From: Candidatus Woesearchaeota archaeon
GTDB lineage: Archaea > Nanobdellota > Nanobdellia > Woesearchaeales > GW2011-AR4
Direction: 5' to 3'
Assembly: GCA_016185755.1 (NCBI GenBank)
Contig: JACPMX010000006.1
Span: 98,644-162,643 of the forward strand
Length of the DNA stretch: 64,000 bases
A program made the translations under genes and the position numbers. Every line of letters starts with the position of its first letter. Positions within the stretch are counted from its first letter, which is position 1. Below the pieces are notes generated by a model. That model ran no database searches and was not told the origin of the DNA. It worked only from the letters and a program-made list of their open reading frames with translations. Below, piece after piece: positions 20,226-38,550 of this stretch.

Positions 20226-20260
20226 TTTGGATTATAGTTTTTGAATTTTACTTAAATCTT

Positions 20261-20350
20261 CAATCCGTCCCTTCGGGACAATATTTTGTGCGCCTCGGAC
20301 AATCCGATTTTGAGCCAAATTTTCTTTGTGCTCCTCCTCGGCGCAAATAT
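20261..20350 (+). repeat. dispersed two-hairpin repeat family, copy A (composite/degenerate)
   Basis: AATCCGTCCCTTCGGGACAATATTTTGTGC... shares the 5' hairpin and the TTTTGTGC(TC) core with copies at 30572, 34912 and 38487. Confidence 0.5.
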
Positions 20351-20436
20351 ATTACAAGCGGATTACTTTCTGCACTTTTACAGCGCAAAGTCGCTTTCGG
20401 GATTGAATTTTTATTTCGTAATGCGTTTTATGATGT

Positions 20437-20766
20437 TTATCCTGATCCTCTTCCGGCCTTTGTCAGCTGGCCTGCCTCGAATTCTGTCTCCCTGAGCATC
20501 AAAATGTCGCCAAGCTGGATTGGGCCTTTTACATTCCTTCTCAAAACCTTGTTCTTGTCCCTTCCATCCAAGACCCTGCACCTTATCTGGATTGCCTCGC
20601 CCCTTGAGCCGGTTCTTCCTATTATTTCCTCGACTTTTGCCGGGGTTGCGAACGAAAAATTGACAGCCCCTTTTACCTGCTCTTCCTGCTGCTGCCGCTG
20701 GGGCTTTCTCTTCATCTGGCCCCTGCCTTCGTCTTTCAAATGCTTTGTGGGGTCTTCTTTGGCCAT
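20437..20766 (-). CDS. rps28e: 30S ribosomal protein S28e (ORF with N-terminal extension)
   Basis: C-terminal [19 protein letters not shown]...[17 protein letters not shown] is typical S28e. The ORF start abuts the rpl7ae stop. Confidence 0.85.
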
Positions 20767-20767
20767 C

Positions 20768-21112
20768 TTACTTCTTCATCCTGTCTGCAATCTCTTTTAT
20801 CAGCTGCTTTGCCTCGCCTTCCTGCACAATCACAACGCTTCCTGTCGGGACATCCACACCTGCTGCTGCGCCAAGCTCTTCCTTGCTTGGAACCTGCACG
20901 CACGGCACTCCCTTCTCCTCTGAAAGTATTGGTATATGCATCGTTATCTCAGGCGGATTGACATCTTTTGCAATCGCGACAAACTTTGCAATGCCTTTTT
21001 CAATCACTTTTGTGGTCTCGTTTGTGCCTTTCCTTATCTTGCCTGTTGCTTTGGCTACTTCTATAGCCTCATAAACCTTGTCAACCAATTCCTTTGGCGC
21101 TTCATAAACCAT
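20768..21112 (-). CDS. rpl7ae: 50S ribosomal protein L7Ae
   Basis: [29 protein letters not shown] is the canonical L7Ae/L30e fold sequence. Confidence 0.95.
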
Positions 21113-21280
21113 TTTAACCTTACTCCACCTTGATTTGGATAAACAAGAACTTGCTTACCTCTCTCGGCTATCTATGATAGCTTCATCAATCACAGGTATG
21201 CTCTGGAAATAAAACGCTATTTATATAGGTTGCGGTGCGGTTTCGGAATAAATTTATAAACTAATTTTTAATTTCACCAA

Positions 21281-22177
21281 ATGATGGCATACAGCTGGAT
21301 TGCAGGAAACCTCGTCCCCTTGTCAATAGGCTATGCATTGTCTTTTCTGGCGCTTTTCATCGGCTCAATTACCGACTTTAAAACAAGGGAGGTGCCTGAC
21401 TGGGTGAATTATGGGCTGGTGATTTCCGGAATAGGCATAAACCTGCTGTTTTCCGTAATATACTCAGATTCCTCTTTCATAATAAACAGCATCCTTGGAC
21501 TGACGATATTTTTCGGCATAGCATACATAATGTTTTATGCAGGCCAGTGGGGCGGCGGAGATTCTAAAATGCTGATGGGTATCGGCGCGATGATTGGAAT
21601 TGATGTTGGCTTTCCAAAAGAGCAGTTCCTTCTTGGATTCCTTGTAAATGCGCTGTTCATAGGAGCCTTATACGGGCTTTTGTGGAGCATTTTCCTTGCC
21701 CTCAAGAACAGGCAGAAATTCTCTGGCAATTTCAAAAAGATACTGGCGGGAAAAAACGTTGCCAAGGCAAAGAAATTACTGCTGGCTTTTTTGGCAATAC
21801 TTTTGGTTGCATTGCTCTTTGCAAATCACTACGTGAGGATATCTCTGCTCTCATTTGGGCTGCTTGCCATTACGAGCCTTTACCTCTGGATTTTTGTCAA
21901 GGCAATTGAAAAAACATCAATGTACAAATTAGTGGAGCCGGGCAAGCTGACTGAAGGAGACTGGATTGCAAAAGACGTTTTTGTAGGCAAAAAGTACATT
22001 TGCGGGCCGAAGGATTTGGGCATAGAGAAAAAGCAAATAAGGCAGCTGATTGAATTCTACAAAAAGAGGAAAGTCGGCAAGATACTGATAAAGGAGGGCA
22101 TTCCGTTTGTGCCCAGCTTTTTCCTTGCCTTTATCGTGACTTTTGTGCTTGGGAATCCGCTAATGTGGATGCTGTGA
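21281..22177 (+). CDS. A24-family prepilin/preflagellin peptidase
   Basis: Polytopic protein with the two catalytic Asp contexts ITDFKTREVPD and GGGDSKMLMGIG. Confidence 0.8.
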   Translation: MMAYSWIAGNLVPLSIGYALSFLALFIGSITDFKTREVPDWVNYGLVISGIGINLLFSVIYSDSSFIINSILGLTIFFGIAYIMFYAGQWGGGDSKMLMGIGAMIGIDVGFPKEQFLLGFLVNALFIGALYGLLWSIFLALKNRQKFSGNFKKILAGKNVAKAKKLLLAFLAILLVALLFANHYVRISLLSFGLLAITSLYLWIFVKAIEKTSMYKLVEPGKLTEGDWIAKDVFVGKKYICGPKDLGIEKKQIRQLIEFYKKRKVGKILIKEGIPFVPSFFLAFIVTFVLGNPLMWML

Positions 22178-22576
22178 AATCATTAGGAACCTTCTCAGCA
22201 TTTTTTTGGCAGCTTCCTCGGGGCTGATTCCGGTCACAATAGTATCTCCATCTTTTAGGGACCCATAATCTTTTTCGTTTAGGTAACTGTACATGATGTG
22301 CTCACCATCCGGCCCGATAACAGAGATATGCTGGGCAACAACACTTTTATTGACTTCTTTTGTTGATATGCGGATAGAATAGCCGGAGCCATCAATCTCA
22401 TAGTCAACAAACAGCCTTATTTTGATGCTGCCATTCTGGACAGCCCTCTGGTTTTGCTCCTGCAAATATCCTATGCTGGCCAAGGCATAAGGGTGGCTTA
22501 AGGCAAGCCGATAAATTCTCTTGTCAGAAATTTCCTTGATGCAATCCATGACCACCCACCTTAAATCTTTTGCCAC
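22160..22576 (-). CDS. hypothetical protein
   Basis: 138-aa ORF with a GTG start at 22576 (first ATG at 22549). No motif recognised. Confidence 0.45.
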   Translation of the reverse strand: MAKDLRWVVMDCIKEISDKRIYRLALSHPYALASIGYLQEQNQRAVQNGSIKIRLFVDYEIDGSGYSIRISTKEVNKSVVAQHISVIGPDGEHIMYSYLNEKDYGSLKDGDTIVTGISPEEAAKKMLRRFLMISQHPH

Positions 22577-22623
22577 AGAAAAAAGTTGTTTAGCCTCATT
22601 TATAAATCAATATTATAAATAAT

Positions 22624-23160
22624 TTACGGCAGCCTCCCCATCTGCCTTGTGAAATACTCCTCCTCTTCCTCTGAAAAAATCACCGGCTTTGGGACCTGCA
22701 CCTTTGGCCTTTTCTCCTCTTTTTCAAAATGCCCCATATTTTTAGTCTGCTCCTTCAATTTAAGCTCGACAGTGGACATTTCCTCCTCGCCAAGCTGCCT
22801 TGGCTGCCATTGCAGGTTGATGCCGTCGTTCTCCTTCCTTGGAATGACATTTATCATGAAATGCGCGACTGTCTGGCCTGCGGGAATGCCGTTGGCCACG
22901 AAGATATTGGTTCCCTGCGCGCCAAGAGCCTCGAATATCGCGCTTGAAATTTTGTTGGAAACCTGGAACAGCCTTCCTATCTCGATGTCAGGAACCTGCT
23001 CTATTATGGGGTAATGGTTTTTCGGCATGACAAAGCAGTGGCCCGGGTTTGCGCCGTTGACATCCAGAACAGCAAGCACCATTTCGTCCTCGTAAATCTT
23101 TTTTGACGGGATGCTGTTTCCTATGATTTGGCATATGATGCACGTGTTTTTTGCCATCAT
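22624..23160 (-). CDS. HIT-family protein with degenerate histidine triad
   Basis: CIICQII zinc motif and NGIPAGQTVAHFMINVIPR, where the triad reads H-F-M-I-N. Acidic/basic C-terminal tail. Confidence 0.75.
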   Translation of the reverse strand: MMAKNTCIICQIIGNSIPSKKIYEDEMVLAVLDVNGANPGHCFVMPKNHYPIIEQVPDIEIGRLFQVSNKISSAIFEALGAQGTNIFVANGIPAGQTVAHFMINVIPRKENDGINLQWQPRQLGEEEMSTVELKLKEQTKNMGHFEKEEKRPKVQVPKPVIFSEEEEEYFTRQMGRLP

Positions 23161-23777
23161 TTAGCTCCGAGCAGTTTCGAGATGTCGTCAAGATTGATGC
23201 CCTTGCCCTCTTTTTTAGGCTCTTCTTTCTTCGGAACAGGAATCTGGGCTTTTGCATCTTCTTTTTCAACAGCGCCCCCAAGGGCTGCAACCAGCTTGTT
23301 TCCTATCGATTCTATCTCCTGCTGCTCCATCGCCTTTTGAGGAAGAACAAAATCAACCCCGTCCTTTTCCTTCCTTGGGATTACATGTGCCATGAAGTGC
23401 TGCGCCCTCTGGCCGGCTGCAATCCCGTTTGCCACTATTATGTTTGTGCCCTGCGCGTCAATGGAGCGCAGCATGGAATTTGAGAGTGATTTTGCAGCCA
23501 TGAACACGTGAGAAATATCTTCATCGGGGATCTGCGGCATTATGGAATAATGCTCCTTTGTCATCAGAAGAACATGGCCCGGGTTTGCGGGGTTTATGTC
23601 AAGAATTGCAAGGACTTTTTCATCCTCGTAGATTTTCTTGGACTGGACCTTGCCGGCTATTATCTGGCAGAAAATGCACTGCTTTTTCTGGAACTCCTTC
23701 AATTCCTCAGGACTCATCTGCTTTATCTTTTCCTGCAAAGCCTTCAGTTGCTCGGGGCTTATGTTTTGCTCGGCCAT
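23157..23777 (-). CDS. HIT-family protein with degenerate histidine triad (paralog)
   Basis: CIFCQII and NGIAAGQRAQHFMAHVIPR, where the triad reads H-F-M-A-H. ATGA overlap with the downstream paralog. Confidence 0.75.
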   Translation of the reverse strand: MAEQNISPEQLKALQEKIKQMSPEELKEFQKKQCIFCQIIAGKVQSKKIYEDEKVLAILDINPANPGHVLLMTKEHYSIMPQIPDEDISHVFMAAKSLSNSMLRSIDAQGTNIIVANGIAAGQRAQHFMAHVIPRKEKDGVDFVLPQKAMEQQEIESIGNKLVAALGGAVEKEDAKAQIPVPKKEEPKKEGKGINLDDISKLLGAK

Positions 23778-23812
23778 GTTGCATGCCTAATAATATTTTT
23801 TTATAAATGTTG

Positions 23813-26800
23813 TCATTCCTGCTCCTGGCAAAAAAAGTTCCCGATGCAGCACTTGCCATTCCTGCACTGGTTCCTCGCAAGGTTGTCCCTGCAGTCAAAA
23901 TGAAACTGGCCTTTCTTGCCGCAGCTGTCAAAGTAATACATCCTGTCGCCGTCCTCGCACCTTTTTTCAGCATTCTGGATGCATGGCTTTCCGCATTCCC
24001 CATTGGTGCATACCTCTCCTGACGGGCATGACTGCACAAATTCCTCCTGATTCCCGCAGCTGTCAAGCCAAAACACAACATCGCCAACACAGCCTTTTTT
24101 CGCATGGCTTTTGCAGAATTGCGAGACTTCCACCTTAAAAGCAGCCCTGTCCGTGAACTCAAGGTCATCAATTTGAATGGTTATTGTTGAAGTCCCGTCC
24201 CTGTTCTGCCTTACTTCACAGTCAAGATGCTTCTCACTGCTTATGCTGCAGTCCACAAGTGCCTTGTTTGTCTGGTCTATTATGGTGTAAACAAGGCTTG
24301 ACGGGTTTGTTTCCCTGTCCTGGGCATATTTCCAGAGATTGCTTATTACATTTTTTTTCAGGCCGATGCCGGAAACTGAAGCGTCCGGAATGCCGCCTAT
24401 GGTTGGAGCTGTATTCGGGCCTTTTGTTTCCTCTTCAGGCTTTTCTCCGGCAGCAAACTGCGCAACTCCCAGCCCCTGTATGGCCTTCTTGCATTCGTCA
24501 TCAAGCTCCGCGCTTAATTTGTATGACACTCTCTGCTCTCCCTCCAGGCTTTCAAAGCTCCACATTATCAACGGGTCGGACTTTATCTCGACATTGCCTT
24601 CTATATTTTCTGCAAGGAATTTGTCCAGGTCATCAATGCAGTTCTTCGGTATGAACTCGTAAAACCTGAAGTCTTTAATTTGGCTGCCTTTTTTCGGCCT
24701 TATTATTATCTGCACGCTTGTTATGCCGTCGCAGAATGTAAACTTCCTGAACATCTCGACATTCTGCCTTGTTATTTTTATATTGGCTGATTCCCTGTCA
24801 AAATCTGAAGGGCAGTTGCTGCATCCGAACTCTATCGCTTCATTTATTATCTTTTTTGACTCTTCCTCGCTGATGTTTATTGGCATCAAAGTGCATTCAG
24901 GCTGCTCGCATGAAGCTGCAATTTTTGCGTACTTGCCGGCTCCCTCTATAAAAAATGATATCTTGTCAAATTTAGGGCTGAAGCATATGTGATAAGGATA
25001 AATCATCTCAAGGCTGCCTGCATTGAATGAGCGCTTCACATTTCCTTCCTTGACCACAAATACATTATCCCCTCCGCCTGTCCTTAGGCTGTCCATAATT
25101 ATTGGAACGTCCTTGAAATTTTCGGGCTGGATTCCCTTGCTGAGGTCAAAAAAATATATCCGGTCGGCTTTGCACGGGACATCGTATGTCTGCAGCTCTC
25201 TAGTCCCGTACCTAAGGCTTTTGTCAAGGTTCCTCAGCTCTATCTCAAATTTTGCGATTTCAGTATTGCAGGCTCTCTCCTTAACCACACTTACCATCTT
25301 GTAGCCAAGGATCAGGATAAAAACAGAAACAACCCCGACCAGGCCGTACTTGAACACTTCTCCAATAAGCTGGGCTTTTTTAGGCCTGAAGATGCTTTTT
25401 TCAAGCCTTCTCGCCTTCCTCATTCCAGATACTATTTTTTCATCAATCGGCTCAGACCACTTTCTCCTGTGGTACTCCATCACTATCTCATACAAAAACA
25501 TGAGGTAGCCCCCTATGTAAAAAACTGCAGACAAGGCAAGAAGTACGCCGAGCACCGCGGCTATAATGAAATGAGGCGTGAACAAAGTCAGCATTATATT
25601 GCCGTAGAAATAAAGCAGCATGCTGCTGAAAAAATAATAAAGGTAAACTGCGTAAAAAGCCAGCCCCCCTATTATGGAAAATGCGTACAGCTCCCTCCTC
25701 GTTTTGGGATTCGAGCTTAGGATGTAGACAGCAAAGCCGAATATTATTGAAATCAGCGACACAGCAATTATTATGGAAGGCTTATCAGGAAAAAATCTCT
25801 CAAGGACCGAGCTTGTTTCCATCAGCGATATCGAAGCTATGTCAACACCGGCTATTGAAGAGCCGCCAAGAGGCCCGATTATATAGCCCGGGAGCATCAT
25901 GTAGGCTGCAACAGAGGAATAGATAAAGAACAGGAACGGCCTTCTTAAATGCAGCCCTTTTTTTGAGAACATTGATGCCCAGACAAAAACAGGCATGAGC
26001 AGAAAGATGGCAAGCGATGCGGCATTGAGCAGGTAATCGATAAGCAGCGGAATTGCCGCATGAGGCGGAATGCCGGCAGCGTCACTCAAAAACAGGCTCA
26101 AGAAAGGGGTGTGGCCTTCAGTTAAAAACTCAAGGTAAAAATTTTCCCTGAGAAACACGAAAGAATATGCGAATACGCCCAGGTCTGAGAGCGCATGCAG
26201 GATAAGCAGCCCGGATATGGCCAACGGCAGGGTTTTTTTATAATGAAACAGGGATACAAACTTCTTGTACAGGCCGGAGCTGAAGCCGCCGATTTTGTAT
26301 ATGAAATTTTTTTTATCAAATTTTTGATAGTGCTTTGATATGCCATATATGTAGAAAACAGCTCCAACTGCTATTACCGGGTCGTCTATGACGAACTCAA
26401 GCCATTCAAGTATCATGCTATAGACGAAATGATAAAATCCAACAAGCAAAATGAAAATTGAAATGAACTTGAGCAGCCTGCTCCTGAATTTGCTGCCGAA
26501 GATTGCATAGAGGAAGCTTGGATGGGATATCTCTGCCTTATAAGCCAGGTAAATGCTGATGATGAAAATTCCGGCAATCCCGGTATAGAAAGTTGAAATG
26601 TTTGCAGCCAGAAGGTTGTCGCGCAGAAACACGTAAATGTAGTCAACAAAAGATATGAACTTGAATTTAAAGGCATTCAATTCCGTATAGCTTATTATGT
26701 CCTTGAAGAACAGCGAAAAGTATGAAATGATTATCACAAAGTTTGCGAGCCTTGACGTCCTGCCGAACAGAATCGACGTTATGTTCAATTTATAAAACAG

Positions 26801-26962
26801 GTAAGAGAACAAAATGAAGCTCACGGTGTGGTCAATCCAGTCCAGGTCTGCAGAGACGGTCCCGAAGTAGCCGACAAGGCCTATCACCATCAAGGCCCCT
26901 ACAAGAAACTCAACTACCCCAAACTCCAGCTTCCTAAGCACCTCCTTTGCCCCTGCCATCAT
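23813..26962 (-). CDS. large polytopic membrane protein with Cys-rich C-terminal domain
   Basis: 1049 aa. About 500 aa of repeated hydrophobic helices, then a soluble region ending in CxxxC-rich sequence (SCGNQEEFVQSCPSGEVCTNGECGKPC...). Confidence 0.6.
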   Translation of the reverse strand: MMAGAKEVLRKLEFGVVEFLVGALMVIGLVGYFGTVSADLDWIDHTVSFILFSYLFYKLNITSILFGRTSRLANFVIIISYFSLFFKDIISYTELNAFKFKFISFVDYIYVFLRDNLLAANISTFYTGIAGIFIISIYLAYKAEISHPSFLYAIFGSKFRSRLLKFISIFILLVGFYHFVYSMILEWLEFVIDDPVIAVGAVFYIYGISKHYQKFDKKNFIYKIGGFSSGLYKKFVSLFHYKKTLPLAISGLLILHALSDLGVFAYSFVFLRENFYLEFLTEGHTPFLSLFLSDAAGIPPHAAIPLLIDYLLNAASLAIFLLMPVFVWASMFSKKGLHLRRPFLFFIYSSVAAYMMLPGYIIGPLGGSSIAGVDIASISLMETSSVLERFFPDKPSIIIAVSLISIIFGFAVYILSSNPKTRRELYAFSIIGGLAFYAVYLYYFFSSMLLYFYGNIMLTLFTPHFIIAAVLGVLLALSAVFYIGGYLMFLYEIVMEYHRRKWSEPIDEKIVSGMRKARRLEKSIFRPKKAQLIGEVFKYGLVGVVSVFILILGYKMVSVVKERACNTEIAKFEIELRNLDKSLRYGTRELQTYDVPCKADRIYFFDLSKGIQPENFKDVPIIMDSLRTGGGDNVFVVKEGNVKRSFNAGSLEMIYPYHICFSPKFDKISFFIEGAGKYAKIAASCEQPECTLMPINISEEESKKIINEAIEFGCSNCPSDFDRESANIKITRQNVEMFRKFTFCDGITSVQIIIRPKKGSQIKDFRFYEFIPKNCIDDLDKFLAENIEGNVEIKSDPLIMWSFESLEGEQRVSYKLSAELDDECKKAIQGLGVAQFAAGEKPEEETKGPNTAPTIGGIPDASVSGIGLKKNVISNLWKYAQDRETNPSSLVYTIIDQTNKALVDCSISSEKHLDCEVRQNRDGTSTITIQIDDLEFTDRAAFKVEVSQFCKSHAKKGCVGDVVFWLDSCGNQEEFVQSCPSGEVCTNGECGKPCIQNAEKRCEDGDRMYYFDSCGKKGQFHFDCRDNLARNQCRNGKCCIGNFFCQEQE

Positions 26963-27043
26963 CCAATTTTACCTTTGATACTTCTTATTTAAATATTGCT
27001 GTTATTCAATAAATATAAAAACAAAAAAGAAAAGCGGAATTAT

Positions 27044-27829: not shown

Positions 27830-27908
27830 CACTAAGAATTTGAAATCACATTAACAAAAGCTCATTAACTAAAAATCAATAAAAATAAGGAAAAAATATA
27901 AACTAAAA

Positions 27909-29314: not shown

Positions 29315-29316
29315 CC

Positions 29317-30189
29317 ATGCGATTCATCACCAAATCACAAGTCAGATTGGCAAAAAGAGAAAGCGGGAGCCATAAAGGCCAAAATGGCTATGTTCTTGCC
29401 GTTGGAGGCTCTGAAGAATATTCCGGCGCAATTACACTTGCAGGATTGGCTGCCTTGAGAAGCGGATGCGATCTGGTGAAAATAATAGCGCCTAAAAAGG
29501 TTGCATGGGCCATAAATGCCTATTCTCCTGATTTGGTTACGATGAAGCTGAAGGATTCTAATTTTAAATTAAAACATTTTAGTATTGTTAAAAAATCAAT
29601 GGATAGGTTTGATGTTCTTTTGATTGGAAACGGCATCGGCATGGATAATGAAACCAAAAAATTCTGCAAAAAAACAATAAAAGAAATTAAAAAATCCAAA
29701 GTCATAGATGCTGATGCAATAAAATCCATTTCAATGTATGATGCTGAAAATTCAATAATAACCCCTCATTCAAAAGAGCTTGAATATTTTTTAATTAACT
29801 CAAAGATTAAAAAGCCCATTATCGAAAAAATCAATAATGAGAAAAACATCGGGAAAAAATCACAATCAATAAAAAAAACAGCGCAAAAATTCCTCGGCAA
29901 AAACAATATCATCCTTCTTAAAGGGAAAGTTGATGCAATAATATCAAAAAACAGAATTTTGCTTGTAAAAGGCGGCAATGCAGGCATGACAAAAGGCGGC
30001 ACAGGTGATGTGCTGGCAGGATTGTGCGCCGGGTTTTTAGCGCAATCAAAAGAATCGCTTCAAAGCGCAATAAATGCCTCATACTACAACAAAAAAATCG
30101 GAGATATCTTGCTGAAAAAGAAAAAAGGATTTAGTTATCTTGCTTCTGACATGGTAAATGAGATTAAAAGAATAAAAGACTATTCCTGA
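29317..30189 (+). CDS. nnrD: ADP/ATP-dependent NAD(P)H-hydrate dehydratase (YjeF C-terminal domain)
   Basis: GSHKGQNGYVLAVGGSEEYSGAITLAG and GGTGDVLAGLCAGF. Confidence 0.8.
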   Translation: MRFITKSQVRLAKRESGSHKGQNGYVLAVGGSEEYSGAITLAGLAALRSGCDLVKIIAPKKVAWAINAYSPDLVTMKLKDSNFKLKHFSIVKKSMDRFDVLLIGNGIGMDNETKKFCKKTIKEIKKSKVIDADAIKSISMYDAENSIITPHSKELEYFLINSKIKKPIIEKINNEKNIGKKSQSIKKTAQKFLGKNNIILLKGKVDAIISKNRILLVKGGNAGMTKGGTGDVLAGLCAGFLAQSKESLQSAINASYYNKKIGDILLKKKKGFSYLASDMVNEIKRIKDYS

Positions 30190-30539
30190 ATATACTCAAC
30201 GCCCAAAGCAAGGCACAATTCAGCCTTCTTCAGCTCCTTTCCAAGGTAAGCTGCATGGTCAAGCACCCTGAACCAGTTCTTCCTGTGCTCGTCGCTGAAC
30301 TTGAACATTGCGACATAAATGTCATTGGCCCTTTTGCCCCTGAATTCCTTGAGGACCGTGTGTTGGTAGTCGCATACTGCAACTCCAATTTCATGGGTGT
30401 CCCAGTAAATCCTGATCAGGGTATAACAGCCGTCATCGTTCCGGTGATCCTTGTAGTCATCATACGGCTTTGTCCTTATGACTTCAAAGTCATCAGCCAC
30501 CTTCTTGTCCTTCACCCACGCGGGCCTGTCCATTGCCAT
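30180..30539 (-). CDS. hypothetical protein (possibly DUF4346-like)
   Basis: 119 aa. The C-terminal HAAYLGKELKKAELCLALGVEYIQE resembles the DUF4346 pattern from memory. Weak. Confidence 0.4.
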   Translation of the reverse strand: MAMDRPAWVKDKKVADDFEVIRTKPYDDYKDHRNDDGCYTLIRIYWDTHEIGVAVCDYQHTVLKEFRGKRANDIYVAMFKFSDEHRKNWFRVLDHAAYLGKELKKAELCLALGVEYIQE

Positions 30540-30571
30540 TTTTTTATTTTTTAAATTCTAACTTTGTTTTT

Positions 30572-30626
30572 AATCCGTCCTTCGGACAAAATTTACTGCT
30601 CGGAGGCATCCGACCTCCTCGCCTAT
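30572..30626 (+). repeat. dispersed two-hairpin repeat family, copy B
   Basis: AATCCGTCCTTCGGACAAAATTTACTGCTCGGAGGCATCCGACCTCCTCGCCTAT. Hairpins GTCC/GGAC and GGAGG/CCTCC. Confidence 0.6.
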
Positions 30627-30652
30627 TATTGTAAATTGAATCTAACTTTTCT

Positions 30653-31255
30653 TTAAAAAGTTTTGTTTTCCGTATTCGGCACAAAAACCCATTCATTTAG
30701 CCAGTCCTTTTTTATGGTTCCCCTGTCCATGTTGAACAATGGCAGGTAATTATGGTGCACCCTGAACGGAAAAGTGACTTTTGCCGTTATGATCTCATTT
30801 ATGCAGTCCCTGCCGTGCCTTTTTTTTATTTCCGGGATTATGGCGCCGTTGAATATCTCGATAAGCTCGTCCTCGCTGCCGGCTTCTAAAATCAATATAA
30901 TTGCAAAGTGCCCGTCTTTTTCGCCCAGAAAGCTTTCCGCGTGATGCCTTGGGTTGACTTTCCTGAAATTCTCGCTTTTCTTTATCTCGTCAAGGTATTT
31001 CTGCCTTGTGATGCCTTCCTTGAACTTAACGATGTAAAGCTGCCTTGCATTGTGCTGTCCCCTTTCATAGCTCTCATAGGAAACATTGGAGTAATAGTGT
31101 ATATAGCCTTCCTCCTCAAGGAGCTTTCTTTTCCTGTTGACAGTTGTTACAGGAATCATTGTATTCTTGGCTATCTGGTTGTCGGAAATTCTGGGATTCC
31201 GGACAAGCTCCCTCAGTATTTTTTCCTCCTGCTTGTCAAACTTTCTCATTTTCAT
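30653..31255 (-). CDS. winged-helix (Lrp/AsnC-type HTH) regulator
   Basis: N-terminal EEKILRELVRNPRISDNQIAKNTMIPVTTVNRKRKLLEEEGYI. Confidence 0.6.
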   Translation of the reverse strand: MKMRKFDKQEEKILRELVRNPRISDNQIAKNTMIPVTTVNRKRKLLEEEGYIHYYSNVSYESYERGQHNARQLYIVKFKEGITRQKYLDEIKKSENFRKVNPRHHAESFLGEKDGHFAIILILEAGSEDELIEIFNGAIIPEIKKRHGRDCINEIITAKVTFPFRVHHNYLPLFNMDRGTIKKDWLNEWVFVPNTENKTF

Positions 31256-31387
31256 ATATAATTCAGCATAATTTCGTTATACGCAACCATTACATTTGGT
31301 AATTTATTCCGTTTTTTAAGCTTTGTGGTATGAATATGCTAAATTCCTGAAAAAAGCTTTAAAAATGAAAAAGGATTACTGGGAAGT

Positions 31388-31705
31388 ATGGCGATAGCAG
31401 AACCAAGAACTATTGATGATGTTGCTAGGGGCATACCCACACTTAGCCCTAGGGAATTGGGTATTGTACTGACAGGGCATAACTCTGTAGAAGCTATGAG
31501 CGGAAAAGGAAAAGCGCCATCTGTAGGAATTTATGAAGTCAGCGGAAAACTTTACCTGATAAATAGGGTGAATGGGGATATTAATGTTTATGGCATTGGG
31601 CATGTTGAAAATTCATCAATACCAAAATTAACTTTAGTTTCTTATCCAGTAGAACGGGAAAAAGCTTTGAAAGCATACCTAAGGCATGAAGCTGGCTTAA
31701 TTTAA
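31388..31705 (+). CDS. hypothetical protein
   Basis: 105-aa ORF, no motif recognised. Confidence 0.45.
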   Translation: MAIAEPRTIDDVARGIPTLSPRELGIVLTGHNSVEAMSGKGKAPSVGIYEVSGKLYLINRVNGDINVYGIGHVENSSIPKLTLVSYPVEREKALKAYLRHEAGLI

Positions 31706-31720
31706 AAAAATTATCGCAAA

Positions 31721-32098
31721 ATGGCATTCTTGTCTGAAGACGGGGGAATTGGATCGAATACCGATACACTAGATGTTAAGGTTAGAGGCCAGACAACATC
31801 AGTGTCTGCAGCAGACTTGGCGCATTATCTTCAGCAAACATCGCCTGAAGGAACACCCTTATACGGGAATATTGTTGTAAGGGATTTAAGCGAACCAGAA
31901 GTATTTTTGAAAAGAGTCGGAAGCTCTTATTATTTTGGGCAATTGATTGGGATTATACGCAGGCAAGCTGGCGATTTAGTTGCAAGAGTCAAGCCCTTTT
32001 CTGATGAAATAGGGGAGAACCTAAGGGCAGAATTAAGAAGAATATCCCATGCACATCCATTTTTTCCTTACCTCCCAATGGATTCCATTAAAGTATGA
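31721..32098 (+). CDS. hypothetical protein
   Basis: 125-aa ORF 15 nt downstream of the previous one, no motif recognised. Confidence 0.45.
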   Translation: MAFLSEDGGIGSNTDTLDVKVRGQTTSVSAADLAHYLQQTSPEGTPLYGNIVVRDLSEPEVFLKRVGSSYYFGQLIGIIRRQAGDLVARVKPFSDEIGENLRAELRRISHAHPFFPYLPMDSIKV

Positions 32099-32225
32099 AT
32101 CTTTCATCTATTTTCTGAACTAAAATCCAAAACCGCAACCTTTATATACTATTATTAAAGATATTTCTGGAATTATGTTTTAAAATATAAAAAAAGCTAT
32201 GAAAAATAATATTTGAAATACTATT

Positions 32226-32378
32226 ATGGTAAAAATACAGAAATTGCCGTCAGGGCAATTGGTAATCACTATCCCGAAGCTTCTTGCAGAGTATGAAGGG
32301 CTGAAGAAAGGAATGGAGATGGAATTCAAGAAGCACAAGGGCGGGTTTATACTTGAAATAAAGAAAAAAGGTGGTTGA
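32226..32378 (+). CDS. AbrB/SpoVT-type small DNA-binding protein (50 aa)
   Basis: MVKIQKLPSGQLVITIPKLLAEYEGLKKGMEMEFKKHKGGFILEIKK fits the swapped-hairpin AbrB/MazE pattern. A/T box about 35 nt upstream. Below the ORF-track size cutoff. Confidence 0.5.
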   Translation: MVKIQKLPSGQLVITIPKLLAEYEGLKKGMEMEFKKHKGGFILEIKKKGG

Positions 32379-32529
32379 ACTGAAAATAGACGATATAGCA
32401 GCACTGCTAGGGAAAAGAAGGAGCGAAGTCGAGGAAATGCTGAAGAGAAGCGATGTGATAGATCTTAACCTGAGCGAGAGGAAGCCTAGGCAAAGGGACG
32501 AAGATGACGACCTGAGGATTTACGAATAG
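32371..32529 (+). CDS. small hypothetical protein (52 aa, HTH-like)
   Basis: GTG start overlaps the AbrB-like stop (GTGGTTGA). IDDIAALLGKRRSEVEEMLKR, then an acidic tail. Weak. Confidence 0.3.
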   Translation: MVELKIDDIAALLGKRRSEVEEMLKRSDVIDLNLSERKPRQRDEDDDLRIYE

Positions 32530-32643
32530 GCATAGCACATTCAGGCATGGAAGCAGCATCGCCGCTTCGGAGTATTATGGGCTTAAGCCATAAACCAAAA
32601 CTTTAAAAAGAATATTTCAAACAAAAATCAAAAAGAGGACAAA

Positions 32644-34056
32644 ATGCCGACAGACGCAGAGCTTGCAAAATATGGCTTTGAGAACGAAACAAGCGAGGAG
32701 TACAGGCAGTCGTTCATAAAGACAGGCTACCCCCAGCCTGCAAGGAGGTACAGGCTGCACTATGAAGGCTACAACATTTCCATAGAAGAGCCTTATTTCT
32801 GGATGCTTCACTACCTGAGATATTTTGGGGGATTTCCAAGGATTGACAAGATAACTGATGTTTTTGCAGCTGCGGAAAATTCAGCTTTTTTTGGAGCGTC
32901 GCAGCAGAGGATAGGGCTGCAGCAGGACAAAGTTTCCCAATTTCTTGCCACGATAGGGAAGATGGTGAGGGAACTGTTCCAGCTTGTCAGGGAAATGAGA
33001 GTTCTGGACGAGAGACTGGGCTATTATGCGGACTCGTACACAAACAGCCCCAGCGCTGAAAGCGCTGAAATAACATTGAAAGGGATATGGGTTGATTTGG
33101 TTGAGCAGGGAGCTAAAAACCCGGCGTCAGTCTACGGAATGGCAAGGGAAGTGCAATTCACAACCCTGCCGGACCTGTTTTTCAGCACGCATCCCCAGAA
33201 GCAGGAGGATGTTGACATTTCAGTTGAAAGGGAAAGGGGGCAGTTCAACAGGAAAGTAAGGGAAGTGCTGAAAAGAAAGCTCAGGGCATTTTTGGCATGG
33301 AAGGAGCACACTTATCAGGAGCTGAAAAACAGGAGGGTATTCACATTAAAATACCTCAGGCAGCATTTTGAAATCATAAGGATGTATGTGACATGGGTAA
33401 AGCCATATCTAAAAAACATACAAAGGCTGCAGCTTGACCAGAGCAAAACAGAAACTCCTGACCTGATAATTGCATTTGAAGGCTCGATGATTGAGGTTGA
33501 GATCCTCGCAGTCAAGCCTGCATCGGGAGGAATGAACCAATGCATACTGATGCATTACTTTTTCAGGACAAGGCCTGAAATGAGTTATTCCCAGGAATAT
33601 CAGAGGGGGCCGCTGCACCTCGGCAGGGTTGAAATCGACTTCCGCGCTTACGGATGGACTGACAAGGAGATTGAAAATTACAAGAGAATGAGGGACCAGG
33701 AAGATTTCCAGCTGCTTGGGGTAATTGACGGCTCTGTAAAGTCGGCAATGGAATCCCTGGGAGACGAGCTGATGCGCTATCTCAAAGAGGCCGGTGAGGA
33801 ATTCGAGGAGAAAAAAGAAATGCCAAAAGCGCATCCAAAAAGGCCAGGCATTTTCATGTCAGTCTTTGACGGGTTTGCCGAGCTTCTTGGCTCATTCAGG
33901 GTTAAAAAGGAAATCAAGGAGTCAAGAAAAAAGCCGAAACAGACAGACCTGATGAAGGAAGCGATTGCAAGGAGCAAGGCAGAGGACGCTGTCAAGAAAG
34001 TCATGTGGAACACTTACCATCATTTCAAGAAGCAGCATGACATGCTAAACTGGTGA
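32644..34056 (+). CDS. hypothetical protein (470 aa)
   Basis: Long uninterrupted ORF with host-like composition. No motif recognised. Confidence 0.6.
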   Translation: MPTDAELAKYGFENETSEEYRQSFIKTGYPQPARRYRLHYEGYNISIEEPYFWMLHYLRYFGGFPRIDKITDVFAAAENSAFFGASQQRIGLQQDKVSQFLATIGKMVRELFQLVREMRVLDERLGYYADSYTNSPSAESAEITLKGIWVDLVEQGAKNPASVYGMAREVQFTTLPDLFFSTHPQKQEDVDISVERERGQFNRKVREVLKRKLRAFLAWKEHTYQELKNRRVFTLKYLRQHFEIIRMYVTWVKPYLKNIQRLQLDQSKTETPDLIIAFEGSMIEVEILAVKPASGGMNQCILMHYFFRTRPEMSYSQEYQRGPLHLGRVEIDFRAYGWTDKEIENYKRMRDQEDFQLLGVIDGSVKSAMESLGDELMRYLKEAGEEFEEKKEMPKAHPKRPGIFMSVFDGFAELLGSFRVKKEIKESRKKPKQTDLMKEAIARSKAEDAVKKVMWNTYHHFKKQHDMLNW

Positions 34057-34080
34057 ATATTGTATTATTTTTATAATTTG

Positions 34081-34785
34081 TTAATTGAATACAGATATAT
34101 GTGCCATACCCACACTTATAAGGAAATTAGTTCTTTCAGGATATAAGCTAATGATTTTATGGAATTCTTGTCGGCTGTAAGCTTCCCAGTAAGGTTTTAT
34201 ATCTTCGTACAAAATAGTAGGTGCACCATTTTTTATAACTCTGCAGACATCATCAAGAGATCTTCTCATCATTTTAGCTGTGCCTAATAAGGCTAACAAA
34301 AGTTCAATTGGTCCGTCGGGTGCATTAGGAAACATCTGAAAATGAAATTGTACCATTGCTCTTTCAATTTCGTCATCACTAACCCCAGCACTCTTTTTAA
34401 TAAATCTCCTAACTTCGGCATCATCAATATCGGGCATTGCCTCGTGGTAAGGTATACTAAATAATTTGGCTAATTCCTGAAAATAGAAATGAGGAGGAAA
34501 TTCCTTTGGATCTTTGATTTGTTTAGAAACACCCTCTCTGAGTATTATCCAATCGTTGGGATTTAATTTTGGCACTATGCTTTGATGTACGTACTCTACG
34601 GGCTTTTTTGAAGCGTGAGTCTCTCCAACAACATACAATGTCCTGTCTCGTAAAAAACGTTTATCCTCAAATATTTCCGCATCAACCATTCCTCTTGTAA
34701 CAGGGTCCTGTTCTGTTCTTTCTTTAAAATCTTCAAATGCTTCCATCACAATTGAATACAATTCGTGCTCGTCTTTGAATTCCAT
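34081..34785 (-). CDS. hypothetical protein
   Basis: 234-aa ORF in an AT-rich segment. LYVVGETHASK faintly recalls TraB/GumN-type motifs. Not supported further. Confidence 0.5.
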   Translation of the reverse strand: MEFKDEHELYSIVMEAFEDFKERTEQDPVTRGMVDAEIFEDKRFLRDRTLYVVGETHASKKPVEYVHQSIVPKLNPNDWIILREGVSKQIKDPKEFPPHFYFQELAKLFSIPYHEAMPDIDDAEVRRFIKKSAGVSDDEIERAMVQFHFQMFPNAPDGPIELLLALLGTAKMMRRSLDDVCRVIKNGAPTILYEDIKPYWEAYSRQEFHKIISLYPERTNFLISVGMAHISVFN

Positions 34786-34911
34786 AAAACGAAGTTACCC
34801 CAATAGCCTTAAAAATCTTTGTTTTTTCACTACTTTAAAATTAATATATTAAAACCACTAACTATTTATATCACCGTTTCATAGAATAACTAAAAGATAA
34901 TGATTAAAATT

Positions 34912-34963
34912 ATAAGCGAGCCGTCGGATGCGGCGAGCACAAAAATCTGCCGAAGGCGGAATC
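34912..34963 (-). repeat. dispersed two-hairpin repeat family, copy D
   Basis: Minus strand reads GATTCCGCCTTCGGCAGATTTTTGTGCTCGCCGCATCCGACGGCTCGCTTAT. Hairpins GCC/GGC and GCCG/CGGC. Confidence 0.6.
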
Positions 34964-34988
34964 AAATTGAATACAAAAAGGTGATATT

Positions 34989-37130
34989 ATGAAATTCGGC
35001 TCAGGCTATTATTCCCACCATCCTGTGGTGGACTATTTCAATTCAATGGACCCTGAAAGCTACGGGGAAAAGCCGGCATATGGGGCAGACCTTGGGATAA
35101 AAGACATCGGAATGAGCGTTCCCATGGGGATTTCCGCTGCAAATGTCGCAGGCATTTACTCCAAGATAAGGATGGGGGCAGGCAACATAGAAATACAGTT
35201 CCCGGGATACAGGATGGGCTCAAGAAATGCGCAAACTCCCGAAATGCTTGGAGAAGACCAGAGGCAGGCAATAAGGGAGCTGTCCATGGCAAATGAAGTC
35301 AAATTCACAACACATGCCTCTTTCCAATTGATGGGGATGATGGGCAGGGATGAAAGGGGTAATTTTTCAATCTATAATGCAACCCAGGATTTGTTCGAGC
35401 TGAAAAGGGCAATTGATTTCCAGGCTGACATGGGCGGAGGCTCGGTTGTCATGCATTCAGGGGAATTTGAAAGGCCGATGACTGACATGTACCTCGACGA
35501 CGAAAGCGGAAGAATCAATCTTGCAAGGGACCCAAGCGGAAGGCTTCTGTTCAAGCAGGCCCATACGCAGGAAGTTGATGCAAGATTTGAGCTTCTTGAC
35601 GACAGGACGCATGCAAAGATAGAGACTGTGCAGAAAGACAGGCTTGTTGCACATCCTACTTGGAATACAGCTGAAAAAGATTATTGGGGAGCTGATCAAA
35701 AAGGAAATAGTGTTTTTATAAAACAAGGAGACTATATTGATTATCAAAAAAAACTCATTAATGACCCCTATGACCCGCTAAAAGGGCGCGTTCCAAAGTT
35801 CAACGAAAAAACACAGCTCTTTGAGTCAAAATTAAAGACATTTGAGGATTTCAGAAAAGAAGCAGAAGACTACAACAGGTTTCAGGAGAAAAAATTAGGA
35901 AGGAAGCTGAATTATTATGAAAAGATGTATCCTGAAGAAGCTTATGTTAAAGCTACTTTGGATTCACAGGAAAGCATAGCAAGAGGATGGCAGCTTCAGT
36001 TTTCTGCCACAGCTGACACTCAGATAAAGGCGCTGCAAAAACTCAGGGAGGCAAAAAAATTTTATGAAGACCTGCAGGCATCAACACCGCCGGAAGAGCA
36101 ATGGAAACTGCTGAGGCAGGATGATGAGCTTTACAGGGCCACGCACGGCTTTGTTGCGCCTGAAATGAAGACTCCGCTGGATCTGATTAAAAAGGCCGAG
36201 TTTGATGTTGAAAGGTCCCTTGAATATTACAGGACAACTGCTGCAGGACAGGGGCAGCAGGCAGAAGACACATATGAAACAAAGAAACACATAATCACTC
36301 CAATAAAAAGGCTGGAGAAGCATGGCGTGAGGATGTATGCAGAGGCAGGAGTGCATGCACTAAGAAAAACTCGCGACCCAAACAATCCTGTGACTGTCGC
36401 AATCGAGCACATTTTTCCTGAAAGATTTGGCGGCCATCTTGAAGAGTTGAAGTGGATAATAAAGAAATCAAGGGAGAGAATGGTTGATTTGCTGACGAAG
36501 CCGGAGATTGAATATGGTACAAGTTTAGCTCCAGAAGGGGCTACGCATGATACTAGACAGCCAAACCCTTATTACATGGGTGTAAGCAAGGAAGAAGCCG
36601 AGAAACTGGCTGAGAAGCACATAAAGGCAACACTTGACACAGGCCACATCAACCTTTGGAGAAAATACTGGCAGGATGATCCAAGAAAAACAAGGGAGCA
36701 GAATGAGTCTGCATTCAACAAATGGGTTCTTGACCAGGTTGAAAGCCTTGCAAGGGAAAAAATGGTCGGGAATGTGCACCTTGCAGACAACTATGGCTAC
36801 CATGATGACCATCTTGGGCCCGGGCAGGGCAACAGCCCAATAAAAGAGATAATGGCAATAGTCAAGAAATATGGCTATTCAAAGGCCATCACTGTTGAGC
36901 CCGGTGCGGATGCCTCGACTGACTTGAGCGACTTCCATGGCCTGATGAAGACATGGAGATTTTTCGGAAGCCCGGTTTACGGCATGGGTTTCAGAGGGGC
37001 AGGAGTTCCGCAGACCTGGAGCGATGTGCAGTATTCCTTCTTCGGCCAGAACAAGCCCCCTTACTACATATTTGGGGGCTATGCGCCAAGCAATGACTGG
37101 ACATTCTGGAGCGCAGTTCCTTTGGAATAA
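34989..37130 (+). CDS. xylose-isomerase-like TIM-barrel protein with large internal insertion
   Basis: N-terminal GAGNIEIQFPG...FTTHASF...GGGSVVMHSGE and C-terminal VAIEHIFPE...LDTGHINLW...NVHLADNYGYHDDHLGPGQG...ITVEPG match sugar-phosphate isomerase/AP-endonuclease-2 barrel motifs. About 300 aa intervene. Confidence 0.65.
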   Translation: MKFGSGYYSHHPVVDYFNSMDPESYGEKPAYGADLGIKDIGMSVPMGISAANVAGIYSKIRMGAGNIEIQFPGYRMGSRNAQTPEMLGEDQRQAIRELSMANEVKFTTHASFQLMGMMGRDERGNFSIYNATQDLFELKRAIDFQADMGGGSVVMHSGEFERPMTDMYLDDESGRINLARDPSGRLLFKQAHTQEVDARFELLDDRTHAKIETVQKDRLVAHPTWNTAEKDYWGADQKGNSVFIKQGDYIDYQKKLINDPYDPLKGRVPKFNEKTQLFESKLKTFEDFRKEAEDYNRFQEKKLGRKLNYYEKMYPEEAYVKATLDSQESIARGWQLQFSATADTQIKALQKLREAKKFYEDLQASTPPEEQWKLLRQDDELYRATHGFVAPEMKTPLDLIKKAEFDVERSLEYYRTTAAGQGQQAEDTYETKKHIITPIKRLEKHGVRMYAEAGVHALRKTRDPNNPVTVAIEHIFPERFGGHLEELKWIIKKSRERMVDLLTKPEIEYGTSLAPEGATHDTRQPNPYYMGVSKEEAEKLAEKHIKATLDTGHINLWRKYWQDDPRKTREQNESAFNKWVLDQVESLAREKMVGNVHLADNYGYHDDHLGPGQGNSPIKEIMAIVKKYGYSKAITVEPGADASTDLSDFHGLMKTWRFFGSPVYGMGFRGAGVPQTWSDVQYSFFGQNKPPYYIFGGYAPSNDWTFWSAVPLE

Positions 37131-37264
37131 ATGCAATTATCTTTTTATTATTTGTTTTTATTATTTTTTTATTGATTCTACAGTTATTGAGTCTTCGTTA
37201 ATGTTAATCGTCATTGTGTTTTTTGTGAAAAAGTTTAAATACATTAATTTCTGTATTGAAAAAT

Positions 37265-37768
37265 ATGATTGACAAGAAAGAGTTCACGAAGCTCTCTCCC
37301 GGGGAAAGGATAAAAAGGCTCAAGCTTTTGGAAGAGGAGAAGAAAAAGGAAGTTGACGAAATAGGGCACTTGATAAGGGACTCAATGCGCGAGCTCAAGA
37401 CTGACAAGCTGGCAGAGGAAGTTGCCCCGGAGCAAAAGGCTGTTGACATTTCAAGGCTTTTCGAGTCGAATGCAGGGCACAATCTTGAGTGGACTGCAAG
37501 AAAGGAAACAGCTTCATCGGGAAAAGGCAGTAAAGGCTATCAAACCTTTCTGCAAGTCCAGTATGACTACACAAAGCTGAAGAAATTCGAGTATGCGCTG
37601 TCTGTCGAAGGCACGCTTACACAGGAGCAGCTTGCATCGATTGGCCAGATAGGCGAAAGGATAAACAGGGCAGAAAGGTACATGACAGATTCGGAAAAGA
37701 CTGCGAGCAAGCTTGATGCAAGCAGAATTGTCCTTTACAAGCTGAAGAAAGAGACTGGACTTGACTAG
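37265..37768 (+). CDS. hypothetical charged/coiled-coil protein
   Basis: ORF with its first ATG at 37265 (TTG at 37256). Lys/Glu-rich N-terminus. Confidence 0.45.
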   Translation: MIDKKEFTKLSPGERIKRLKLLEEEKKKEVDEIGHLIRDSMRELKTDKLAEEVAPEQKAVDISRLFESNAGHNLEWTARKETASSGKGSKGYQTFLQVQYDYTKLKKFEYALSVEGTLTQEQLASIGQIGERINRAERYMTDSEKTASKLDASRIVLYKLKKETGLD

Positions 37769-38382
37769 GATGTTGAAATTTTGAGCAGATACATGACCGT
37801 GTCAAGCCTCATCCAAAGCTTGAACTGCTCCCATTCTGCGGAATTCATGCCTGCCATCGGGACAAGGGATGACTTGTCTATAGGGGTCTTGGAATTGAAG
37901 TATCTTATGTATTTTGCCCCATTGTCCATCAGCTGCTTGTCTGCAAGGAAAAATCCCGAGTCATCAAGCTGCACATTTTTTTCTGCGACTACCTCTTCTT
38001 CATTTTGATAGGAACTACTTGCCCTGAATTTTCCAAGGTAGCTGAACAGTTTGCCATAGTCCACGTATGAAGCTTTAGGCGAAGCTCCGTAGCCTTTCGA
38101 TGCAGACCCATATCCCCCGCTTGCAAACTCTGCGCCATCTTTAAGCATAGAGTAGGCTGTGCCGTTTTCTATGATTTTTTCTTTTCTTTCCCTTTTTGCC
38201 TTTTCAGCTGCATTTTTTATCAGTATGCCTACGATTGAAGAAATCGGAATCTCTGTTTTTTTTGAACCAGCTTTTGCAAGAGGCCTTTTTCCGGCTTTAA
38301 GCCTTGGCACCTTAACGGAAATTTTTTTAACCCTGACTTTGGAAAAATTTAACACCTTGTCTGCTAATGTATTTGACACCAA
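37765..38382 (-). CDS. hypothetical protein
   Basis: 205-aa ORF with a TTG start, no motif. Confidence 0.4.
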   Translation of the reverse strand: MVSNTLADKVLNFSKVRVKKISVKVPRLKAGKRPLAKAGSKKTEIPISSIVGILIKNAAEKAKRERKEKIIENGTAYSMLKDGAEFASGGYGSASKGYGASPKASYVDYGKLFSYLGKFRASSSYQNEEEVVAEKNVQLDDSGFFLADKQLMDNGAKYIRYFNSKTPIDKSSLVPMAGMNSAEWEQFKLWMRLDTVMYLLKISTS

Positions 38383-38486
38383 ACCACCTGTTGGATATTA
38401 TATCCAATATAGCATGTATTTATAGTTTTTGGTTAAGCTTATTAATAAGCTGGATTTTAGCTCGAAATAACATCAAATAAACATCA

Positions 38487-38550
38487 AATCTGCCTTCGGC
38501 CAATTTTGTGCTCGGTCTCGCTGTTTGCACACACGCTCGACCTCGCTTAT
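38487..38550 (+). repeat. dispersed two-hairpin repeat family, copy C
   Basis: AATCTGCCTTCGGCCAATTTTGTGCTCGGTCTCGCTGTTTGCACACACGCTCGACCTCGCTTAT. Hairpins GCC/GGC and GGTC/GACC with an enlarged loop. Confidence 0.6.

Follow-up and report, generated by a model that had tools for sequence, protein, structure and literature searches.

An undescribed family of dispersed two-hairpin repeats in the intergenic DNA of a groundwater Woesearchaeota

The closest described parallels to the element reported here appear to be bacterial. Repetitive extragenic palindromes (REP), bacterial interspersed mosaic elements (BIME) and the REPIN doublets are mobilised by RAYT tyrosine transposases, and the Correia elements of Neisseria (CREE/NEMIS), which belong with the promoter-bearing MITEs (transposable elements of the miniature inverted-repeat type), carry 26-bp inverted repeats, TA duplications and bacterial -35/-10 boxes. 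In archaea, a census found a very high MITE density in a Woesearchaeal genome (PMC11602168). Mini-hairpins of the C-GNA-G type have exceptional stability when made of DNA but a much lower one when made of RNA, and are known at single-stranded DNA (ssDNA) priming signals (CCGAAGG in ssiA) and in the hairpin promoters of phage N4 (PMC13037366; PMC3201870). Here, we describe a two-hairpin element from a 64,000-nucleotide stretch (the window) of the genome of a Candidatus Woesearchaeota archaeon, a groundwater DPANN metagenome-assembled genome of 1.25 Mb in 16 contigs (assembly GCA_016185755.1); the window covers positions 98,644 to 162,643 of contig JACPMX010000006.1 (C3). Four look-alike stretches of this window, copies A to D, are real members of an undescribed repeat family. 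The explanation that we favour, with belief and doubt about evenly balanced, is that of a DNA repeat which is maintained for its structure, lies close to promoters, is gained and lost between genomes and folds on one particular strand, in the manner of REP/BIME sequences or promoter-bearing MITEs.

The family was collected from the 16 contigs by a simple motif scan, then by nhmmer, and was delimited with a covariance model trained on nine copies other than A to D (five pairs in hairpin 1 and four pairs in hairpin 2). In what follows, L designates the two-hairpin unit, the head is its AATCC end, and E* is the reverse complement of the text in which the element was originally written. The four copies were found as quoted in the preliminary description of the window, with copy A at 20262-20348 (+) and copy D at 34912-34962 (-), and all of them were recovered by the model with E-values from 2e-14 to 9e-07, in agreement with their assignment to one family. 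The count of four holds for the window but not for the family as a whole, since the genome contains 48 copies at a covariance-model E-value of 0.01 or less, the best reaching 3e-22. All 48 are intergenic relative to the predicted genes, and whole units are 71-87% identical in pairwise comparison, i.e. they differ by 13-29%. The covariance scan of the assembly and of related genomes, proposed earlier as a check, thus yielded 48 copies here and hundreds in congeners.

Literature searches retrieved no description of this repeat family. In Rfam, nothing overlapped the copies even at E <= 5, and only a tRNA-Glu in the window passed the gathering threshold; the original statement that the element belongs to no known RNA class and has no C/D or H/ACA boxes therefore stands. 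A pattern scan of 185,579 genomes was made with a pattern that was too loose and gave many chance matches in GC-rich bacteria; names of Woesearchaeota metagenome-assembled genomes were among the matches.

The compensatory changes noticed in the stems of the four copies proved to be a property of the whole family. The model alignment comprised 43 distinct sequences, most of them taken from other species, and standard pairs accounted for 99.4% of its 359 pair cells. Changes on both sides were observed in eight of the nine pairs (89 cells), no pair varied on one side only, and G·U was seen in a single cell. When the partners were shuffled or slid, only 34-73% of the cells paired (34-55% for slid partners alone), and none of 500 shuffles reached the observed values. 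A second parse, in which 79 copies were divided by eye-defined boxes independently of the model, gave the same picture: 344 Watson-Crick pairs without any internal mismatch in hairpin 1, and 481 in hairpin 2 next to 3 G·T, 4 A·C and 8 mismatches of other kinds, that is 825 Watson-Crick pairs among 840 stem positions. Further copies with non-compensatory substitutions, which would have spoken against selection on a fold, were thus almost lacking. The only mismatches that are tolerated are TC/TC on the written strand, which correspond to tandem G·A on E*.

Since dead, drifting copies would show broken stems, the pairing is actively maintained, and with copies only 71-87% identical the intact stems are not merely a sign of youth. 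The idea of selection on a fold is accordingly borne out by the retention of both hairpins at this divergence; its opposition to a plain repeat is less clear-cut, because the family is also dispersed, gained and lost as repeats are. Furthermore, the covariation expected of a structured non-coding RNA is present, but wobble and one-sided changes are nearly absent, unlike in typical RNA families, and no strand-specific excess of wobble was found (3 G·T versus 4 A·C). No more than 32 distinct 5' arms were counted in 82 copies, and the same arms reappear in different species; the exchange of whole-hairpin cassettes between copies is a plausible source of the apparent compensation.

In the preliminary description, copies A, B and C were written on the plus strand. 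Nearest-neighbour calculations pointed to the opposite strand: E* was predicted to be the more stable in 78 of 83 copies with RNA and DNA parameters alike (p ~1e-14), with a mean advantage of -4.8 kcal/mol for RNA parameters and -1.5 kcal/mol for DNA parameters. In 56 of 78 copies, TC..TC stands on both sides of the hairpin 2 stem; the frame GCTC-stem-TCGC is seen in 41 of the 78, and an inner TC..TC within the stem in 24 of the 78. Read on E*, this arrangement becomes GC pairs, G·A/A·G, the stem and again G·A/A·G, all in the favourable C-GA-G context. The boxes TGCTC and TCGCC, which had been described as conserved and unpaired, are indeed conserved, but on E* they extend hairpin 2 as GC pairs and tandem G·A. 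In hairpin 1, 55 L copies have TTC as their loop, and 72 of 82 copies are closed by a C-G pair, which gives C-GAA-G on E*; the rarer loops TAC and TGC become GTA and GCA, i.e. GNA as well. Hairpin 1 thus shows on one strand the GNA triloop closed by 5'-C...G-3' that defines the DNA mini-hairpins. A recurrent variant, GTTCGC TTC GCTCAC, contains a TC/TC internal loop that is likewise converted into tandem G·A on E*. Taken together, the predicted fold is strand-specific and located on the E* strand.

Other readings of the same structures were discarded. A UUCG tetraloop is ruled out by the register, which leaves a loop of three nucleotides, TTC. C/D, H/ACA and K-turn readings failed because the boxes are missing and the tandem G·A loops are symmetric (2x2), with no 3-nt bulge. 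A permuted or split tRNA, suggested by AATCCG and GCGGATT, was dropped because no T-arm or acceptor context exists.

The L unit is about 50-75 nt long. On E*, it begins with the tail box ATTAATGAATA-ATAG, followed by hairpin 2, which consists of GC pairs, a tandem G·A, a variable Watson-Crick stem of 3-10 bp, frequently another tandem G·A, and a loop with TGGCA in it. There follow an A/T linker, then hairpin 1 (variable stem of 3-6 bp, C-GAA-G closed) and, to complete the unit, the head CGGATT-GAAAA. Hairpin 2 falls into several classes, and the short CATCCGA class of copies B and D is one of them. Three forms were distinguished: solo L units (copies B, C and D), L-R pairs and L-S units. In the 11 L-R pairs (146-168 nt), a second, diverged unit R is joined tail-to-tail to L across the palindrome ATTCATTAATGAAT, and the ends form a 9-bp inverted repeat, TTCAATCCG...CGGATTGAA. 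Composite units as a whole measure 146-190 nt. Terminal inverted repeats such as those of MITEs are therefore found on composite units, and solo units have one such end only; solo units outnumber the complete ones and retain every conserved box. The L-R pair was also considered as one long RNA paired via G·U (GTGCTCG with CGAGTGT), a reading that was rejected as the minimum free energy (MFE) is similar on both strands.

The L-S units, also 11 in number with copy A included, combine L with a module S of the form CGGRTYACYTY..loop..RAGGYCGY, followed by a run of five or six T or by CGGGATTGAA. Behind copy A, CGGGATTGAA repeats the element head in inverted form and thereby brackets this L-S unit with inverted ends. 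The L-S form also provides an argument for a small RNA or leader made from the written strand (AATCCG...CTCGCCTAT), which in its longer form would end at the T-run after S: at 11 loci L is followed by the hairpin and T5-6 of S, the T-runs occur on the written strand only, and S also follows a second hairpin family (X, below), as if it were a shared 3' terminator. Nevertheless, an RNA of this kind is highly improbable. In 78 of 83 copies the written strand has a lower predicted stability than E*, and its internal loops are TC/TC mismatches; the conserved loop is the 3-nt TTC and not a UUCG tetraloop. Moreover, the tail box, tried as a promoter, gave 7 matches in 46 copies, which is not above the null, and no consistent TATA was seen 30 nt upstream of the head. 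Among the options first raised for the fold (small RNA, leader element or single-stranded DNA site), the last fits best, while RNA from the written strand is disfavoured.

In order to relate the element to promoters, the genome-wide signal has to be considered. In the upstream regions of 631-699 genes of the whole genome, the motif TTTAWATA starts sharply at -30/-31 from the ATG, within the consensus cCRAAAnnTTTAWATA; this position indicates that leaderless genes dominate. A separate class of genes carries GGTGA-type Shine-Dalgarno sites at -14 to -9. In this genome, 26 of 38 L heads are directed at a gene start, 17 of them at 18-67 nt, and R heads lie 24-40 nt after stop codons in six of eight. 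Among 27 copies of relatives, 16 have the head towards a start, at distances that cluster around 32-40 nt, and 11 have it towards a stop; for three further copies the sequence beside the head reads as two tRNA genes and rpl24e. Overall, the head-to-ATG distance is usually 30-40 nt. An outward match to the matrix combining the B recognition element (BRE) and TATA was found between +3 and -16 of the head in 23 of 46 copies, as against 19.4% in element-free intergenic DNA (p = 3e-06). The rate is similar with or without a following gene start, which suggests that the promoter-like end belongs to the element itself.

tRNA genes were also met near the element. In relatives, those of loci L007 and L019 start about 38-40 nt from an L head, and in this genome a tRNA (C3:51600-51680) lies about 80 nt behind the tail of the copy at C3:51679-51747. 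Given the tRNA genes near L heads, the element also appears to neighbour the promoters of RNA genes.

Searched with the covariance model, the family was present in 22 of 24 congeners, with 0-92 copies per genome, and only one of 16 genomes from other families of the order gave a match. In the reading favoured here, the family is genus-specific and non-coding. Upstream of the gene orthologous to that next to copy B, the element is absent at the position of copy B in all 19 readable congeners; an L-R pair lies 95 nt from the start in one congener, and a fragment is present in another, in each case at a different position. In addition, a related metagenome contig (run X7) skips 30544-30652, leaving the flanking genes of copy B about 10 nt apart. 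The spacer between rps28e and rpl24e, where copy A resides, varies from 1 to 1055 nt across 19 congeners (L056-L074). L-type elements occupy it in 10 of the 19 genomes, with differing subtypes and with the head always towards rpl24e. At least three other, unrelated hairpin-rich inserts were also observed in this spacer (e.g. in L064, L072 and L061/L067). The L elements and the other inserts together make this spacer a hot spot for small insertions.

Copy A (20262-20348, written on the plus strand) was recovered with 32.4 bits (E 4e-07). Folding is favoured on its minus strand, i.e. the sense strand for rpl24e, and about 35 nt separate its AATCC head, at 20262, from the start codon of rpl24e (CAT at 20223-20225). 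Initially regarded as composite and degenerate, it is instead an L subtype with a long insert in hairpin 2, which was found at the same rps28e-rpl24e site in two other species (G001 and G013) with a compensatory change from GCGCC/GGCGC to GCGCG/CGCGC. Between the head and the rpl24e ATG lies an AT-rich flank (20226-20261, minus strand), in which TTTAAGTA begins 31 nt before the ATG, the usual TATA position of this genome; the promoter-matrix match there was recorded as 'R -16', with a score of 6.3. On the other side of copy A, an S module (20358-20415, plus strand), delimited in an alignment of 10 L-S units, reads GCGGATTACTTT..loop..AAAGTCGC, then TTTCGGGATTGAA and a T-run, and corresponds to the nhmmer match at C3 118993-119055 (E 8.5e-11). 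The unusual 210-nt spacer around copy A is thus resolved into a promoter flank, the element and an S module.

Copy B (30572-30626, written on the plus strand; 44.9 bits, E 4e-11) has the short hairpin 2 GGAGG CATCCGA CCTCC. Its head is located 32 nt from the start of the minus-strand gene 30180-30539, and its tail 26 nt from the stop of the gene 30653-31255. Within 30544-30652, copy B is flanked on both sides by AAAGTTAGA(T/A)T, read on the minus strand, as a direct repeat matching at 10 of 11 positions. This repeat could be an insertion footprint; it is within the null range, and such repeats are not above chance family-wide.

Copy D (34912-34962, written on the minus strand; 31 bits, E 9e-07) also has a short hairpin 2, GCCG CATCCGA CGGC. 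Here the plus strand is the one favoured for folding, and the element lies 26 nt upstream of a 713-aa gene (ATG at 34989), which possesses a GGTGAT Shine-Dalgarno site 18 nt past the element; a promoter-like site with a score of 8.2 lies 47 nt beyond the tail and is directed through the element. Copy C (38487-38550, written on the plus strand; 55.7 bits, E 2e-14) has the long hairpin 2 GGTC..TCGCTGTTTGCACACACGCTC..GACC. It is situated in a divergent intergenic region, with its tail 34 nt from the ATG at 38585 and its head about 104 nt from the minus-strand open reading frame ending at 38382, and over its first 58 nt it does not differ from a copy on contig C2 (25371-25434).

These contexts bear directly on a serious rival of the DNA repeat, namely a structured RNA transcribed from E*, the sense strand of the downstream gene. 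Such an RNA could serve the neighbouring mRNAs as a 5' leader or intercistronic element, with a role in their stability, their processing or the binding of protein; alternatively, it could form the 5' domain of a transcript of its own that begins just upstream of the tail. Tandem G·A in the C-GA-G context and GNA triloops are classic RNA motifs, and it is with RNA parameters that the E* advantage reaches 4.8 kcal/mol. Copies A and B stand between co-directional genes that are 1-10 nt apart in some relatives, which makes read-through transcription likely, and copy D has a strong promoter-like site beyond its tail, pointing through the element, and a Shine-Dalgarno site in the gene that follows. 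Among 15 solo copies, 10 have a promoter-like match 9-56 nt beyond the tail (by our reading of the promoter-matrix matches, with no null for that window), and eight of these ten would place the transcription start 1-26 nt upstream of the tail. This RNA would, however, be expected to tolerate wobble, and only one G·U was found in 359 cells, with G·T about as frequent as A·C. Most head-adjacent genes are without a Shine-Dalgarno site and have their ATG 30-40 nt from the head, a spacing consistent with leaderless transcripts beginning downstream of the element. Furthermore, about one third of the copies face a stop codon, L-R pairs put one half on each strand, presence at the same gene varies between species and Rfam gave no match. 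On balance, we regard an E* RNA as less likely than the DNA repeat, but as a serious rival to it.

For the DNA repeat, a mechanism can be outlined. The hairpins would function on the E* strand in the form of folded DNA, either single-stranded or extruded, and would there be recognised by a structure-specific protein. The family would spread and be homogenised by copying or by recombination between the conserved boxes, and the swapping of entire hairpin cassettes would keep the pairing without wobble intermediates. Copies would then persist mainly where the head supplies the promoter of the next gene or leaves it undisturbed. A bolder version, which we consider rather unlikely, makes the hairpins a working ssDNA device of Woesearchaeota on the sense (E*) strand, extruded by transcription-driven supercoiling or exposed on the lagging-strand template just upstream of BRE/TATA, and read by a structure-specific protein (primase-like, recombinase-like or a transcription factor) that copies the cassette to new promoters and sets promoter activity or insulation. 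If it were true, archaea would have their own counterpart of REPIN-RAYT systems, or else of ssi signals and hairpin promoters, and one that employs a new enzyme.

Several observations weigh against the interpretation as a mobile, structure-maintained DNA repeat. Because the copies are related to one another (32 arms in 82 copies), the cell counts overstate the number of independent compensatory events. The asymmetry due to tandem G·A and GNA loops would stabilise an RNA too; where genes stand in tandem or in an operon, E* coincides with the sense strand and its transcription may well occur, and no public RNA run was found that contains this genome or that of a relative. A promoter-like match at the head is missing from half of the copies, and in about one third the head is beside a stop codon. 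There are no near-identical copies, so that recent transposition is not demonstrated in this genome. As to a mobilising enzyme, Y1 (IS200/RAYT-type) transposase genes do not track the copy number among congeners: PF01797 is absent from G001 (45 copies), G021 (92), G016 (42) and G005 (38) and present in G006, which has no copy, although these absences are not absolute, the congener genomes being 74-90% complete. The ends of the IS200-like (GGACTTTAGTCC) and IS903-like (GCTTTGCAC...) elements are unrelated to those of the repeat, in a comparison confined to these two types of element. Finally, no target-site duplication was detected, the mean longest common substring being 7.8 nt for the two flanks of a copy versus 7.5 nt for mismatched flanks, and only two of 38 copies exceeding the 95th percentile of the null.

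Two candidate sources of mobility were rejected on these grounds: a MITE of the resident IS903-like (in the window) or IS200-like element, as the ends are unrelated, and a REPIN-RAYT link, as Y1_Tnp does not co-occur with copy number. The two IS200-type Y1 transposase genes of the genome (C6:65031-65375 and C12:59530-59883) are flanked by GGACTTTAGTCC-type hairpins, which are unrelated to L.

The same results bear on the remaining rival, an ordinary MITE moved by cut-and-paste by a DDE transposase encoded elsewhere, in which the hairpins would be a mere by-product and the solo L units remnants of elements broken in half. The composites of 146-190 nt do end in the 9-bp inverted repeats TTCAATCCG...CGGATTGAA, congeners hold 0-92 copies with sites filled or empty according to the species, and the MITE census found a Woesearchaeal genome to be very rich in such elements (PMC11602168). 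Yet there is no signal of target-site duplication, and the IS903-like transposon of the window has unrelated ends. Copies that are 71-87% alike all have intact stems, an outcome that random decay of dead copies would not yield, and the solo units outnumber the complete ones while keeping all conserved boxes. We thus think that such a DDE-driven MITE is improbable; like the written-strand RNA, it is less likely than the RNA from E*. The preliminary description had considered that the copies might prove to be termini of a non-autonomous transposon and had proposed a search for target-site duplications. The inverted ends of the composites agree with the former idea, but no matching transposase was found among the Y1, IS200-like and IS903-like types compared, and the duplications are not found above the mismatched-flank null.

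Two further hairpin modules were encountered alongside L. The S module, as CGGRTYACYTY..loop..RAGGYCGYTCT, is found at 20358-20415 of the window and at about 20 further sites of the genome. Its stem comes in two compensating classes, ACTTT/AAAGT and CCTC/GAGG, with some G·T pairs, and its 5' arm GGGTCACCTC may resemble the anti-Shine-Dalgarno end of 16S rRNA. The MFE folds of S are inconsistent, which is why the module is described only loosely. A second dispersed hairpin family, X, with the form (A/C)TGAGACCCATGC-loop-AATGGGTGCCCCTC, has seven copies on contigs outside the window (C6:101613, C6:103493, C8:29894, C12:171476, C12:190301, C16:27215 and C16:26059). In four of the seven, an S module with its stem and T-run follows about 20-35 nt after X, and from its layout X-S looks like a small transcription unit.

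The DNA repeat that we favour would have consequences beyond this locus. DPANN genomes are tiny and tightly packed, and those of this genus nevertheless contain up to 92 copies of an intricately structured repeat beside promoters; this abundance implies either an unrecognised mobile-DNA mechanism of archaea or a structural element of promoter architecture. Perfect compensatory pairing without RNA-type wobble is, in addition, a warning for covariation-based RNA discovery. The family also offers a test bed for the function of C-GNA-G mini-hairpins and tandem G·A hairpins in chromosomal DNA, it explains odd spacers in otherwise tight ribosomal-protein operons, and it could serve as a strain marker in groundwater metagenomes.

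When compared with known systems, the L family meets the full definition of neither REP/BIME sequences nor promoter-bearing MITEs. Like REP, BIME and REPIN, it is composed of short extragenic imperfect palindromes in tens of copies, present singly and as inverted doublets (48 intergenic copies and 11 L-R pairs). It also resembles them in being a lineage-specific, long-lived and diverged family, in the lack of target duplications and in the conservation of structure over stem sequence. It differs by its archaeal host, without a co-occurring Y1/RAYT gene, by its two hairpins per unit with conserved tandem G·A and GNA triloop, and by the boxes at the feet of the hairpins, AATCCG, TGCTC and TCGCC, which take the place of the GTAG/CGTC tag of REP. 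Furthermore, L units lie beside promoters, whereas REP sequences are found at the 3' ends of operons.

With the Correia elements and other promoter-bearing MITEs, the L family has in common a small non-coding repeat, inverted ends, an outward promoter-like end and a variable presence between relatives; its ends, however, are of 9 bp, without duplication, the promoter match is to archaeal BRE/TATA, and the copies are much more diverged. The palindrome-associated transposable elements (PATEs) and IS200-IS605 derivatives of archaea are similar in generating no target duplications, and the hairpins would be recognition features for single-strand transposition; the two IS200-type copies of this genome nevertheless have other end hairpins, GGACTTTAGTCC, and TnpA is missing from several element-rich genomes.

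In structure, the L family also resembles the C-GNA-G mini-hairpins. It differs from these sites in being chromosomal, dispersed and joined to a second, larger hairpin. Hairpin 1 on E* is often literally CCGAAGG or GCGAAGC, as in the RSF1010 ssiA signal and in the d(GCGAAGC) hairpin of the phage G4 origin, and it has the same geometry as the early promoters of phage N4, with a stem of about 5 bp and a loop of three nucleotides (PMC13037366).

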